DNA of 50,761 bases, from sequence record OR896829.1, one strand, 5' to 3'. A program made the position numbers and the translations under genes. Each line of letters starts with the position of its first letter. Position 1 is the stretch's first letter. The notes beneath the pieces were generated by a model. That model ran no database searches. It was not told the DNA's origin and saw only the letters and a program-made list of their open reading frames with translations. Below, one piece after another: positions 3,685-50,749 of this stretch. This stretch comes from Escherichia phage MatMar.

Positions 3685-4797
3685 ATGAAGGCAAAACAAA
3701 GGTTTGATAGTGTGCGCGTCAAAGCGCACTTTGACGATAACGGATTTTTAGTGGATCGCCCAATTGTGGCGCGTATCGGTTTGCAGGAGTACCAAACTCC
3801 TTTCGGCGTTCGACGTGAATTTCGCCCAGCGTCAGAGGTATTCAAGGCCGACTCCCTGGAGACGTTCGCAGGCAAGCCGATCACTATCGGGCATGTTACC
3901 GTCACGCCTGAGAACGCGGAAAAAGTGGTTGTTGGTTCCTGTGCTGGCGCTGGCGTTCCAAACGGGATCGGGGTAGAAGTGCCGTTAAGCATTTACTCTA
4001 AACGCGCGATTGACAGCGCGAAGAAGCGCGCCACTGCGGAAATCTCTGTGGGTTACACTTCCGTTGATATTGATAAGCCAGGCTGGGGAAATAATCAAAC
4101 AGGAGAATATATCTTTGAAGAAGATATGAAAGAAGATTGGAAACCGGATTCTCCTGATTGGGTTAAGTTCGATGCCATTCAGACGAACATCAGAGTTAAT
4201 CATATCGCGCTAGTTTTCCGTGGTCGTGCCGGAGTCGCTAAACTAAACCTTGATAGTGAGCAAGATTTTCCGTATAGTGACGAGGATATTTCAAACAAAG
4301 AGGATGAAAAAATGAACGTTAAAATTAAACTTGATGGAGCTGTAGAATTTGATGTGCCGAAAGAAGTTGCTGCGCACATTGACAACCTGAAAGCTGATGC
4401 CAAAGCTGAGAAAGACAAGGCTGCATCACTTGAGGCAGAGCGCGACGCATTGCAGGCTAAGGTTGATGGCATTCCGGCTAAGATTGAAGAAGCTGTGAAG
4501 CAGGCCAAAGCTGACGCAGAAGCGCACGCCGCGCTTGTTGCTGACGCTACAGAGATTGGCATCAAGTGCGACGGCCTGGACGCAAAAGCAATCAAAGTTG
4601 CTTACATCAAAGAGGTTACTGGTGCGGACGTATCAGACAAGGCTGACGCTTACATCGAAACCGCTTTCGATATTGCGAAGACTTCTGATAAAATGGCAGC
4701 GCAGAGACAAGCAGTTAAGGGTGACTCTTTCTGTTCCAATAAGGAAGACGAAGACAAGCCTCTTAATCCAAACGCTCGCTTTGCTAAACTGAAATAA
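3685..4797 (+). CDS. putative capsid scaffolding protein
   Basis: 370 aa; C-terminal half Ala/Lys/Glu-rich coiled-coil-like (KADAKAEKDKAASLEAERDALQAK...); lies between MuF-like and capsid genes. Confidence 0.4.
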   Translation: MKAKQRFDSVRVKAHFDDNGFLVDRPIVARIGLQEYQTPFGVRREFRPASEVFKADSLETFAGKPITIGHVTVTPENAEKVVVGSCAGAGVPNGIGVEVPLSIYSKRAIDSAKKRATAEISVGYTSVDIDKPGWGNNQTGEYIFEEDMKEDWKPDSPDWVKFDAIQTNIRVNHIALVFRGRAGVAKLNLDSEQDFPYSDEDISNKEDEKMNVKIKLDGAVEFDVPKEVAAHIDNLKADAKAEKDKAASLEAERDALQAKVDGIPAKIEEAVKQAKADAEAHAALVADATEIGIKCDGLDAKAIKVAYIKEVTGADVSDKADAYIETAFDIAKTSDKMAAQRQAVKGDSFCSNKEDEDKPLNPNARFAKLK

Positions 4798-4813: not shown

Positions 4814-5323
4814 ATGGCTAAAATTGGAGCAAGTTACTTTGACGTAATGGCGCGCGCACTTCCTGGTCAGGTGTCTGACACTTCCGCTTATAACATCGAC
4901 GGCGCTTGCGTTCTTGACAAGGAAGACGGCATCCCAATCCTCGTTGGCGTGGCTGTTAAGCTAAAAGGCGTTGACTCAATGGGTAATAAGCTGATCGACG
5001 CTATTTCTGGTGGTGGTGATGTTCCTTATGGCGTTGGCATCCGCTCGCACTTTCAAACCACGGCTGATAATGGGCGAATGGTTTATGAGGCTGGCGGCGG
5101 AATCAACGTTATGACCGAGGGCAGAGTCTGGATGGTTGGCGATGATTCTGATAAATCAAAAACTCCACAATATCGCGAGCCTGTGAAAATTGATGAAAAC
5201 ACTGGCAAGGTGAAAAGTGCTGGTGCCATCAATACGAACTGGATCTACACTGGAGATAAAACCACTTTTGGTACTGGTAGCGATTTGTTGACTTTGTTTG
5301 AAGTTCAAGTCTTCCCAAGCTAA
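4814..5323 (+). CDS. putative head decoration / structural protein (paralog 1)
   Basis: 169 aa; shares motifs (AYNIDGxxV, INVMTEGRVW vs INILTRGVVW) with the next ORF; lambda gpD-like position. Confidence 0.35.
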   Translation: MAKIGASYFDVMARALPGQVSDTSAYNIDGACVLDKEDGIPILVGVAVKLKGVDSMGNKLIDAISGGGDVPYGVGIRSHFQTTADNGRMVYEAGGGINVMTEGRVWMVGDDSDKSKTPQYREPVKIDENTGKVKSAGAINTNWIYTGDKTTFGTGSDLLTLFEVQVFPS

Positions 5324-7544: not shown

Positions 7545-7590
7545 TAATTGGGGCGCTTATGCGCCCCTTGTCACATCTGGAGAAAACAAA

Positions 7591-8010
7591 ATGGTAGATG
7601 AATTTTACACAGACGCTGAAATCATGCAGCAAATCGTGAAGTTAGCGCCGCCAATGCAACAAGTTGATCCCGATTTAATTGTGGCATGGATTGAGCTTGC
7701 TAAAGAGTTTGTTTGCAAAAAGCGGTTTAAAAACTCATACCCTAAAGCGGTTGCGCTTTACACCTTGCACCTTATGACGTTGGACGGAGCTATGAAACAG
7801 GAAGGTGAGAGCGTGGAGAGTTACTCACGCCGTATTGCGTCGTTTTCCCTGACTGGAGAATTTAGTCAGACGTTTGACCGCGTGACCAATGACGCAAGCG
7901 GAAAGATGATCCGCCAGACACCGTGGGGAAAAATGTACGAGGCGCTAAACCGTAAGCATGGTGGCGGATTTGGCCTGGTAACTGGATTGCGCCGGAGGTG
8001 TTGCCGATGA
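7591..8010 (+). CDS. putative head-tail connector protein
   Basis: 139 aa from ATG 7591 with GGAG RBS; synteny between capsid and tail genes. Confidence 0.4.
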
Positions 8011-48336: not shown

Positions 48337-48641
48337 TTACGATCAACCTTTCAGAAGAGCAAGCGCGAATTATGTTAGCGGCCTTTGGTTGGCGAGATGA
48401 TAACGGTATTCAGGCAACGGTTAAAATTCCTGAGTCTGTAGCGCGTGAAGTTTTTAACCAGCTTGAACACGCATTTGTTCCCGCTGGTTCTGATCAGGCA
48501 GAAACAGCGGCATGGTTTGGTGAGAATGGCTACCGAGATCAGCAGATTGAGGACTGGAAGCGAAAGAATGAAAGCATGGAGTCGGCATTTGCTGATTACG
48601 TTCAATCAGTTGCAAATCATGTATCGGAGAAATACAAATGA
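48333..48641 (+). CDS. hypothetical protein
   Basis: 102 aa; ATGA overlap. Confidence 0.4.
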   Translation: MITINLSEEQARIMLAAFGWRDDNGIQATVKIPESVAREVFNQLEHAFVPAGSDQAETAAWFGENGYRDQQIEDWKRKNESMESAFADYVQSVANHVSEKYK

Positions 48642-48952
48642 TTTACATTCACTACTACCAAATCGGAACAAACGAGAACAAAAAAGAGCATCGCTTCATT
48701 CATGATGATTTTGACAAGGCAAAGGCGCAGCAACAGGTTTTAGGCGGTGTCATTCAGGCTTTTGAGCCTGTAGAAGATATTGAGCACCGCGATCATTTAA
48801 AAGATATTGTCATTGATGAGATCTCTTGCTTGATTGACGATATGACAAATCACGGCCCTGGTTCCCCGTGGGAAGATGCAGGATCTGTAACGTGGGACAA
48901 GGCAAAAGTTAAGACGCTAAACAACTTTCGGGAGATTCTCGACGGTTTTTAA
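48638..48952 (+). CDS. hypothetical protein
   Basis: 104 aa; ATGA overlap. Confidence 0.4.
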   Translation: MIYIHYYQIGTNENKKEHRFIHDDFDKAKAQQQVLGGVIQAFEPVEDIEHRDHLKDIVIDEISCLIDDMTNHGPGSPWEDAGSVTWDKAKVKTLNNFREILDGF

Positions 48953-49022
48953 TTAAAAACACATAGCCGCTAGAGCGCCTCAATAGCATTCTAACGAGCT
49001 ATTTTTTAAGTAAGGTGATTTT

Positions 49023-49151
49023 ATGGGTGAGTACAAGCAGCCTTCGCAGTGGTGCAAAGAGAAGCAGGAGGAAGCACTGGAGCGCGGAGATGTAGAAGAA
49101 GCTATGAACTATTTCAAACTTGCGGAAGAATGGAAGGGGAGAGGATACTGA
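49023..49151 (+). CDS. hypothetical small protein (42 aa)
   Basis: stop overlaps start of next gene (TGATG); not in ORF track. Confidence 0.3.
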   Translation: MGEYKQPSQWCKEKQEEALERGDVEEAMNYFKLAEEWKGRGY

Positions 49152-49381
49152 TGTTCGGCATGAATGAGGCGCAATTCAACGCAGCTAAACGCCAGGCTAA
49201 AAAGTGCGGCGAGGCGATGAAAGCGGATGTAGAAAAGCGCGGGAAGTATGTTGATGAAGTAATGAAGAGCATCATTGCAGAGCACTACCAACCAATCGCG
49301 CCAATGTTGACGATCACGCAATTTATCTGGCTGTGCGGTTACTTGCGCGGGCGGTGGGGTAATGCTTTCGACCGCGAATGA
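49151..49381 (+). CDS. hypothetical protein
   Basis: 76 aa from ATG 49151 with GGAGAGGA RBS. Confidence 0.4.
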   Translation: MFGMNEAQFNAAKRQAKKCGEAMKADVEKRGKYVDEVMKSIIAEHYQPIAPMLTITQFIWLCGYLRGRWGNAFDRE

Positions 49382-49512
49382 TTGACAACGTTGTCATGAT
49401 TGGATAGCATCAATCCCGTAAACGTAAGAGCGGCCTTGCTGCCGAACGCGTGACGCGATAGTCACAAACAACGGCGCTATGCTGGGACACTGTAAGACGT
49501 AGCGCCTTTTTT
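49382..49512 (+). ncRNA. candidate small RNA unit: promoter-like box with palindrome, about 95 nt, terminator
   Basis: TTGACA N17 TAGCAT where TGACAACGTTGTCA (49383-49396) is a perfect 14-bp palindrome; hairpins gtgac gcgata gtcac and ggcgcta N20 tagcgcc followed by tttttt; no ORF. Confidence 0.3.
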
Positions 49513-49526
49513 ACGGAGCAAATAAA

Positions 49527-49760
49527 ATGCAAAAGTTCAAACTTACAATTGCCTTTCGCGATGAGGTCATTCATCCTTTCTACGGTAGCTTTGATAAATG
49601 CTTTACGGTAGAAGTCACAGAAAATCAGCTTAATGGTGATGATACGTGTATTTCTATCGGTGATGTTGCCTACCCGATTCATAATATTACTTGCATTAAG
49701 CGTGAGGTTATCGCCAGTGATTTACAAGGTGAAACTAACGATTCGACGGATGGGGCGTAA
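49527..49760 (+). CDS. hypothetical protein
   Basis: 77 aa; GGAG RBS. Confidence 0.45.
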   Translation: MQKFKLTIAFRDEVIHPFYGSFDKCFTVEVTENQLNGDDTCISIGDVAYPIHNITCIKREVIASDLQGETNDSTDGA

Positions 49761-49902
49761 TTGCTCATCTTGCAAACAAGATTTTGAATGTGAGGTTGCG
49801 GCCTTTAATGCAGAGCACGCCGTTAACCTTGCAAAACGCCTTTCAGGGGCGAATCCTGAAACACATCAATTTTCCATTAACTTTGTAAAGGAAATATCAT
49901 GA
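49750..49902 (+). CDS. hypothetical small Cys-containing protein (50 aa)
   Basis: ATG 49750 overlapping upstream stop; weak RBS. Confidence 0.3.
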   Translation: MGRNCSSCKQDFECEVAAFNAEHAVNLAKRLSGANPETHQFSINFVKEIS

Positions 49903-50141
49903 GCGCGTTACTATTTGTTTTAAGTTATATCCTCACATTTATTGCTGGCTCATTTGCATGGGGATTCCTGACGTCAGTCGCAATAGCTCATCTTGCACGC
50001 AAAGGCAAGGCGGCGTTTGCCATTTACTCAAGCAAGGATGAGAAATGGAATGTTCGCGGTCGATACCTGCGGATCGGACAGGAAATTCACAAGCACATCA
50101 AAGCAATGGACGGAAAAGTGGAATACAAATTGCTTGAGTGA
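49899..50141 (+). CDS. small membrane protein
   Basis: 80 aa; hydrophobic N-terminal helix LLFVLSYILTFIAGSFAWGFL. Confidence 0.4.
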   Translation: MSALLFVLSYILTFIAGSFAWGFLTSVAIAHLARKGKAAFAIYSSKDEKWNVRGRYLRIGQEIHKHIKAMDGKVEYKLLE

Positions 50142-50148
50142 CGAAAAA

Positions 50149-50176
50149 CAGCCCGCCTTTATGGCGGGTTTTTTAT
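50149..50176 (+). terminator. rho-independent terminator-like hairpin
   Basis: cagcccgcc tttat ggcgggtt followed by ttttatt; then extended -10 TGcTATAAT. Confidence 0.55.
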
Positions 50177-50227
50177 TGCCTGTCATTTGCTATAATGATG
50201 CCCTGTTATCAAAAAGGAGAAATGATT

Positions 50228-50749
50228 ATGGCACGCAATCCTGAGCCAGTAGTGAAGGTTCAAAACTTCAAAGAACTATATAACAAGAAATACGGAGATA
50301 TTGTCACCGTGCAGGCCAGCAGCCGCTACACGCCGGAACAGATTTTCGATCTGGCTGTGCGTTACTTTACGTGGGCAGAACAAAACCACATCCAGGCGGC
50401 AGAAACGGCATCTTTCCAGGGTGATGTGTATGAAAGCAAAGTGCATAAGCCGCGAGTGTTTACGCTGACCGGATTTTCTTTGTTTTCCGGTATCTCTGAC
50501 AGCAACATCCAGAGACTGCGAAAACTCCCAGGTTACAGTGATGTTATGGCGTTTATTGATTCCGTTGTATTTGAGCAAAAATTCCAGCTTGCCGCCCACA
50601 ACATGATCAACCCTGGCTTAATCGGCAAAGAGATCGGAATAGACAAGCCAGCAAGCATCAACGTTGAGGCCACGGCTGATTCCAGCATCGAATCCGTGAC
50701 GGCTGAGGAAGTGCGCGAGGCTGTACGCGATATTCTGGATAATATCTAA
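50228..50749 (+). CDS. terminase small subunit (putative)
   Basis: 173 aa from ATG 50228 with AGGAGA RBS; immediately upstream of terL if the window is circularly joined. Confidence 0.5.
   Translation: MARNPEPVVKVQNFKELYNKKYGDIVTVQASSRYTPEQIFDLAVRYFTWAEQNHIQAAETASFQGDVYESKVHKPRVFTLTGFSLFSGISDSNIQRLRKLPGYSDVMAFIDSVVFEQKFQLAAHNMINPGLIGKEIGIDKPASINVEATADSSIESVTAEEVREAVRDILDNI

Follow-up and report, generated by a model that had tools for sequence, protein, structure and literature searches.

Phage T4 encodes, together with tRNA genes, two small stable RNAs of about 100 nt, species 1 and 2 (rnaC/rnaD), whose function is unknown. C4 of phages P1 and P7 and CI of phage P4 are regulatory RNAs that are cut from longer transcripts with the involvement of RNase P, an enzyme that cleaves at the 5' end of tRNAs; the C4 family is included in Rfam. 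In phage lambda, the PR'-6S-tR' unit comprises a constitutive-looking sigma-70 promoter close before the packaging and structural genes, with conserved bases between its -35 and -10 hexamers, a short transcript devoid of ORFs and an intrinsic terminator. The put RNA of HK022 consists of two adjacent hairpins near a promoter, with a conserved structure and no protein-coding role. In the small RNAs RybB and DicF, a promoter of their own and a conserved single-stranded 5' end are combined with hairpins and a U-tailed terminator. The features listed here for lambda, HK022, RybB and DicF are shared, as predicted from its sequence, by an element that we characterized in the Escherichia phage MatMar. 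MatMar is a T1-like phage; phages of this type rank with the most frequently isolated phages of E. coli and Klebsiella, and therapy collections make use of them. According to the paper on phage TLS, the late region of T1 is organized in modules flanked by intrinsic terminators with sigma-70 promoters, and gene regulation in T1-like phages is among the open questions (PMC11447400). We propose that a structured noncoding RNA, about 95 nt long, has its own gene at positions 49382-49512 of MatMar. This RNA would be free and stable and would act in trans, a reading to which we assign a confidence of roughly 0.5.

The window analyzed is the whole of record OR896829.1 (Escherichia phage MatMar), 50,761 bp, which is the complete genome of a T1-like coliphage of the Drexlerviridae family. 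As given, it starts with the large terminase gene (1-1569), and the small terminase gene terS is located at 50228-50749. Positions 49000-50200 share 99% identity with Escherichia phages Jahat_MG145, BEBK14 and WaterSpirit, and about 82% identity with many Tempevirinae. The RNA element lies about 0.7 kb upstream of terS, from which it is separated by three small genes (49527-50141). On the + strand, it is preceded by a gene encoding a 76-aa protein (49151-49381, phrog_303, TGA stop at 49379-49381) and followed by a 77-aa ORF (49527-49760), whose ATG at 49527 is preceded by a GGAG Shine-Dalgarno sequence at 49515-49518. As the sequence-only reading had noted, the interval is free of ORFs: the ORF scan found none of at least 25 aa on the + strand between the upstream gene and the ATG at 49527. 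A 7-codon ATG ORF at 49479-49502, considered as a hidden peptide, was rejected because it is not conserved, phage BHUENT2 having no ATG there.

Searches of the neighboring proteins against PHROG, Pfam and PDB sequences matched only families of unknown function. The 77-aa ORF and the 50-aa ORF that follows it (49750-49902, phrog_2919) overlap by 11 nt in different frames. In phage 2004V (locus L241, around 1509-1691), a single 60-aa ORF (MWDVKLSIRLMGRSCKNCSQDY...) combines the N-terminal motif of the 77-aa ORF with the start of the 50-aa ORF, so the 77-aa ORF of MatMar looks split or inserted; in some relatives, the annotation at this position reads "fusion protein". A perfect 16-bp palindrome, GTTTTTAATTAAAAAC, is found at 48945-48960, exactly on the stop codon of the gene at 48638-48952.

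The -35 hexamer TTGACA (49382..49387, + strand) directly adjoins the TGA stop of the upstream gene and is followed, after a 17-nt spacer, by the -10 hexamer TAGCAT (49405..49410, + strand), exactly where both had been reported. This putative sigma-70 promoter scored 10/12 in the promoter scan, and its spacer falls within the range of 16-18 bp. When seven genera were first aligned, TTGAC proved invariant, the -10 box read TAnnnT and the downstream stems carried compensatory changes. Of the 30 distinct homologous promoters listed, 27 have TTGAC; in Rtp and IME542 the -35 box reads TTGCAT (by eye). The -10 box of relatives is TAACAT, TAACCT, TACATT or TAGTAT, so that TAnnnT is kept, and the geometry of the promoter is retained in all homologs. 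The first conserved bases of the RNA (CGU) are located 5-7 nt past the -10 box in nearly all homologs, which corresponds to the expected transcription start.

The spacer itself carries a motif just 5' of the -10 box (49396..49403, + strand), which reads ATGATTGG in MatMar and CTGATTGG in most relatives, with the pattern (C/A)TGAnnGG across the family. The octamer CTGATTGG occurs eight times in the MatMar genome against 1.7 expected (at 4154, 15262, 25715, 28948, 30611, 32936, 37519 and 42942), and none of the eight copies is at the RNA element.

A perfect 14-bp palindrome, TGACAACGTTGTCA, overlaps the -35 box at 49383..49396, as had been described. It had been taken for an operator-like site that could make the gene repressible, and a phage helix-turn-helix repressor would then switch the promoter off by binding to it. 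Comparison largely refuted this explanation, which we consider very unlikely despite the perfect symmetry and the overlap with the -35 box. The palindrome is specific to the MatMar lineage: its right half already differs in the nearest genera (TGACAACGATTTCC in egaa, TGACAACTCTTTCC in tunus), and it is absent from all 244 fetched loci, about 40 of them homologous. It is neither repeated nor rarer than chance would have it, with three matches in the genome (up to three mismatches) for 2.3 expected, and six perfect 14-bp palindromes for 3.5 expected and a maximum of seven in shuffles. As judged by this comparison, the palindrome is a chance, lineage-specific accident over a conserved -35 box and no conserved part of the element; the operator was discarded on these grounds.

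The predicted RNA starts with a conserved single-stranded segment, (C)GUAAACGUAAGAG (49417..49430, + strand), which follows the family pattern CGU..AC..A.GAG. Three hairpins come after it, all on the + strand, where the sequence-only reading had counted two; they begin about 14 nt past the predicted start site and not about 95 nt downstream. Hairpin P1 (49431..49444) pairs CGGC with GCCG around the loop CUUGCU; all four of its pairs show compensatory changes, and 94.5% of the alignment cells pair. The linker AACG(C) (49445..49449), conserved in the alignment, leads to hairpin P2 (49450..49465), in which GUGAC pairs with GUCAC around the loop GCGAUA, with compensatory changes in four of five pairs and 99.4% of cells pairing. 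The P2 loop is conserved in homologs as RCGRUW. An A/C-rich linker identified in the alignment, AAACAAC (49466..49472, + strand), separates P2 from hairpin P3 (49473..49506).

P3 forms the terminator stem, GGCGCTA at 49473-49479 pairing with TAGCGCC at 49500-49506. It had been described as enclosing a plain loop of 20 nt. Instead, P3 has a 10-bp lower stem with a bulged A49497, an internal loop in which U49483 faces GUAA (49492-49495), and a short upper stem within 49484-49491. Compensatory changes were observed in 6/10 pairs of the lower stem and 2/3 pairs of the upper stem. Alone, P3 folds at -15.3 kcal/mol in MatMar and at -11 to -21 kcal/mol in relatives. A T6 run directly after P3 gives the U6 tract (49507..49512, + strand), the predicted 3' end of the RNA. 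With its G+C-rich stem, GGCGC/GCGCC base and U6, the segment 49473-49512 has the anatomy of an intrinsic terminator and would probably function as one, in line with what had been proposed; a simple terminator scan missed it because the stem encloses 20 nt. In type-A relatives, T is found at 2-8 of the 8 bases past the P3 stem. MatMar, egaa, tunus and L071 have a strong U tract; it is weaker in several other relatives, and Pocis76 has none. The counterpart of the GUAAGACG motif of P3 in T1, TLS, Rtp and others is the CCGUAA loop of their last hairpin.

The P2 loop (RCG) could form a kissing interaction with the CCGU of the 3' hairpin, but the two do not covary (BHUENT2 has CCAU, uncompensated, by eye). 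The reverse complement of AUAAGAGCG is CGCUCUUA, the boxA of lambda, but this match is on the untranscribed strand and is not kept in T1-type sequences; it was treated as a coincidence.

The comparison covered about 45 distinct sequences from at least 12 genera. Results showed that the same promoter and folded RNA are present upstream of terS in at least 10 genera of the Drexlerviridae, including T1, TLS and Rtp, and that the RNA occupies the syntenic site in all genera sampled but one. A 231-bp query around the element matched 141 phage records; for the distant phages (Hafnia phage Pocis76, Enterobacter phage BHUENT2 and PHB17), the match was restricted to the noncoding part. All annotated records leave an empty gap of 130-460 bp at this locus, and the original GenBank record of T1, in which ribosome-binding sites and terminators are annotated nearby, has nothing in the gap. 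We built a covariance model, R2, for the 5' domain on 15 sequences aligned plainly with MAFFT. It found exactly one site per full genome, scoring 69.5 bits in MatMar, 59.4 in T1, 56.8 in TLS and 26.5 in Rtp. R2 also found the syntenic site in CS01, Ec_L1, NBD2, HazelMika, LF82-10, IME347, IME542 and KLPN1, and marginally in Opt-719. By group, these syntenic matches fall in Kyungwonvirus, Eclunavirus, Vilniusvirus, Badaguanvirus and Webervirus, and marginally in Rogunavirinae. Phage 2004V carries the 5' domain (by eye), and Pantoea phage AAS23 retains the last hairpin only. A first pattern scan of IMG/VR was too loose and gave mostly chance matches, which were filtered with nhmmer. Since the gene upstream of the element is present in 834 phage records, the RNA may be similarly widespread. 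Twenty records labeled "Campylobacter phage" (within MG065636-MG065681, stated host C. jejuni) share about 75-78% identity with the element and its flank, as T1-like coliphages do, and their host label looks doubtful.

We then evaluated the pairing of the stems across these homologs. Overall, 97% of the cells pair, against 63-80% in shuffles, and all stems are backed by compensatory changes. In the plain MAFFT alignment A4, 96.3% of the cells pair, against 66.5% when shuffled and 17-58% when the partners are slid, and compensatory changes are found in 7/9 pairs. The alignments behind the next two results, A5 and A6, were fitted to the model, which biases them in its favor. When 32 distinct sequences were aligned to the model, pairing reached 97.2% against 63% in shuffles, with 8/9 pairs compensatory; slid partners gave 17-60% over this alignment and A4. 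For the full type-A structure including P3, 15 of the 22 pairs show compensatory changes, a number reached by none of 500 shuffles. The z-scores of single-sequence folding are modest (-1.75 to -2.6). G.U pairs greatly outnumber A.C pairs (29 vs 2), which indicates that the + strand RNA is the folding strand. The compensatory changes and the excess of G.U over A.C are those of a structured noncoding RNA under selection. Taken with the conserved promoter, the fixed spacing of CGU and the terminator, they give good support to the earlier suggestion of a small RNA gene.

Covariation of hairpins alone cannot separate RNA from single-stranded DNA, and the locus is near terS; the element could thus be a DNA-level signal (a replication origin, a priming signal or a packaging site) whose hairpins form in single-stranded DNA. 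We regard this as extremely unlikely. The G.U excess is that of + strand RNA, the promoter is conserved at a fixed distance, and the downstream tRNAs of relatives have the same orientation. A pac site was excluded by the position of the terminal repeat of T1, where packaging starts: the repeat spans 1-2800 and the T1 element 7587-7740, about 5 kb downstream of it.

The constant part of the RNA comprises the single-stranded 5' end, P1 (4 bp with a variable loop), the AACG linker and P2 (5 bp with the RCGRUW loop), while the 3' part has two forms across the family. In the MatMar group, the 3' part is the long P3 with its internal loop (A or U opposite GUAA) and a variable upper stem, then the U tract. 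In T1, TLS, Ec_L1, IME347, NBD2, Rtp, Opt-719 and AAS23, it contains additional hairpins. The last of these has a covarying 5-bp stem and the loop A(N1-3)CCGUAA, and is followed by single-stranded A(A)CNAUUC. What comes after AUUC differs between lineages: the Shine-Dalgarno sequence of a small ORF in T1, TLS, Ec_L1, IME347 and CS01, a tRNA-Ser(GCU) gene in NBD2, HazelMika and LF82-10, a tRNA-Arg(UCU) gene in Rtp, 2004V and IME542, and a tRNA-Arg(CCU) gene with a second tRNA-like gene in Opt-719. In the fetched loci, tRNA genes were located at 945-1032 (L232), 4893-4969 (L236) and 1591-1773 (L244), the syntenic point in MatMar being around 49513. Webervirus KLPN1 has a short form of about 55 nt, with the 5' segment, P1 and one more hairpin directly before an ORF. 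In Cronobacter phage CS01 (locus L240, 1193-1520), the 5' domain is followed by about 270 nt that are rich in hairpins and without ORF or tRNA call, a much longer variant.

The tRNAs, of differing identity, each lie right after the conserved AUUC and just before the ribosome-binding site of the next gene. The point after AUUC looks, from these sequences, like a recurrent slot for tRNA insertion. Real tRNAs at the syntenic locus of Vilniusvirus, Braunvirinae and Rogunavirinae could also mean that the element is the remnant of a tRNA operon, its promoter and terminator being kept for the neighboring genes and the RNA itself having no function. A hairpin of T1, NBD2 and IME347, (A/G)UAGUGGU(U)AA, indeed resembles a tRNA D-arm. 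We nevertheless find a remnant unlikely, as compensatory changes in the stems across subfamilies are unexpected under neutral decay, and the presence of two tRNA types at the same point looks like insertion of tRNAs into an existing RNA gene and not the reverse. ARAGORN and the Rfam tRNA model made no tRNA call in the element of MatMar or T1. A degenerate tRNA was rejected, the D-arm-like hairpin of T1 and NBD2 belonging to no cloverleaf.

A cis-acting leader is the likeliest of the alternatives, and we consider it possible though doubtful. The RNA could be an attenuator working through P3, a put- or nut-like antiterminator, or a 5' structure that sets the stability or translation of the downstream message. 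The predicted RNA begins at +1 of the only good promoter before 49527-50141, and the Shine-Dalgarno sequence of the gene at 49527-49760 begins 3 nt past the U tract. The RNA runs directly into an ORF in T1, TLS, Ec_L1, IME347 and Webervirus. In the first four, it has no terminator and would there be a 5' leader unless processed, which counts against a free RNA; the short form of Webervirus agrees equally with a leader and with a free RNA. In 13 of 22 type-A sequences, GCCG, the 3' arm of P1, could pair instead with the CGGC at the base of P3, a classic antiterminator topology, and the late region of T1 is rich in intrinsic terminators (PMC11447400). However, this alternative P1-P3 pairing is absent in the Samwise group and in the truncated fold of MatMar itself. 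In lineages with a tRNA after the RNA, the leader would be severed from the mRNA. No riboswitch or leader family of Rfam matches. For a put-like function, transcripts coming from upstream would also contain the element, which would make its own terminator pointless, and the genomic context would weigh weakly against put- or nut-like antitermination in general.

Read-through into the packaging genes does not seem to be needed either. In MatMar, a strong intrinsic terminator (AGCCCGCC..GGCGGGTT then a T run, 50150-50195 region, + strand) is immediately followed by an extended -10 promoter of terS (TGCTATAAT, 50187-50195, + strand). The terS region of T1 (locus L230, 8322-8364) has the same terminator-then-promoter layout, with TGGTAAAAT as extended -10. 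With a terminator and a promoter of its own for terS, the late genes need no read-through from the RNA element. The three small genes are in another situation. The promoter scan found no strong promoter between the end of the terminator (from 49513) and the genes at 49527-50141, so the gene at 49527-49760 is reachable solely by read-through of P3 and the terminator must leak. An attenuator controlling entry into the last genes before terS, as formerly suggested, thus holds as a possible secondary effect on these genes. Against a wider role stand the separate terminator and promoter of terS, the lack of a terminator in the RNA of T1 and TLS and the lack of an alternative pairing conserved across the family. 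Attenuation would be a real side effect of a leaky terminator, but one without a conserved switch.

The variable context argues more generally. Cleavage by RNase P in the tRNA-bearing lineages would sever the RNA from the downstream message, as the intrinsic terminator would in the MatMar group. With such severing, and with a terminator, a tRNA or an ORF downstream depending on the lineage, a role tied to one downstream mRNA cannot be general. A constant 5' domain in a variable downstream context points instead to trans action by a free and stable RNA. This leaves two models of general scope: either the RNA acts in trans once free, or the nascent RNA acts on the polymerase that makes it. We favor the first. 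The second fits poorly with an element that carries its own terminator and with a terS gene that has its own terminator and extended -10 promoter.

Searches for known relatives of the RNA gave little. With Rfam 15 at gathering thresholds, the whole MatMar genome gave no match; at E up to 10, the element region gave a single spurious 9-bit match and the T1 element nothing relevant, while at the Rtp locus the true tRNA alone scored. No description of the RNA was found in the full-text literature searched, which covers few subscription journals. Host or plasmid origin, or mimicry, was rejected: BLAST against 5,426 E. coli genomes and 72,556 plasmids gave no match. When the MatMar and T1 genomes were scanned by a crude duplex search, the two shared no base-pairing target of the 5' segment. 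The conserved bases of the RNA are scattered in loops and linkers and interspersed with variable ones, with no continuous seed. A compact fold that binds a protein or serves as a decoy therefore fits better than a linear base-pairing seed.

The nearest analogues in kind are perhaps the stable RNAs of T4, which are likewise structured, transcribed by the host polymerase and in one unit with tRNAs, as the element would be in Rtp, NBD2 and Opt-719. However, we found no sequence or Rfam relationship between them, and the MatMar element has no tRNA and has its own terminator. The tRNA-linked versions would, by analogy with C4 and CI, be released by RNase P, but no Rfam match to them was obtained at E up to 10, and the genomic context and phage lifestyle differ. 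Unlike at lambda PR', the first transcribed bases show no obvious -10-like pause element (the final T is missing from TAAACG and TAGACA), the stems are under selection although the lambda mechanism does not need them, and terS has its own promoter; no Q-like gene is known in T1-like phages. HK022 put, compared by description, differs from the MatMar element in that the latter ends in its own terminator. In contrast to RybB and DicF, the conserved 5' positions are interrupted by variable ones, no target was found and many relatives have no U tail. None of the T4 stable RNAs, lambda PR'-6S-tR', HK022 put and the seed-type small RNAs is a relative of the element.

For a free RNA acting in trans, the following course can be proposed. 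Host sigma-70 RNA polymerase would initiate at about 49417/49418 from TTGACA-17-TAGCAT and produce an RNA with a 14-nt single-stranded 5' end, P1, P2 and the long P3 with its conserved internal loop. Most MatMar transcripts would end at the U6 past P3, releasing the free RNA, and a minority of read-through transcripts would carry the three small genes. A more specific version, which we put forward only tentatively and consider rather unlikely as it stands, is a new class of structured RNA of the Drexlerviridae that would act on a host protein, for instance as a decoy disarming a defense that senses RNA or targets tRNAs, or by capturing a host factor of RNA processing or transcription, with the locus doubling as a landing site for tRNAs.

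We conclude that T1-like phages share, throughout the family, a structured RNA that had gone undescribed. It accounts for the recurrent "empty" gap that annotations leave upstream of terS, and its locus explains why differing tRNA genes turn up at exactly one spot. It is a candidate for a new Rfam family and, as an unannotated, single-copy and strongly covarying RNA, provides a testable handle on the regulation of T1-like phages.
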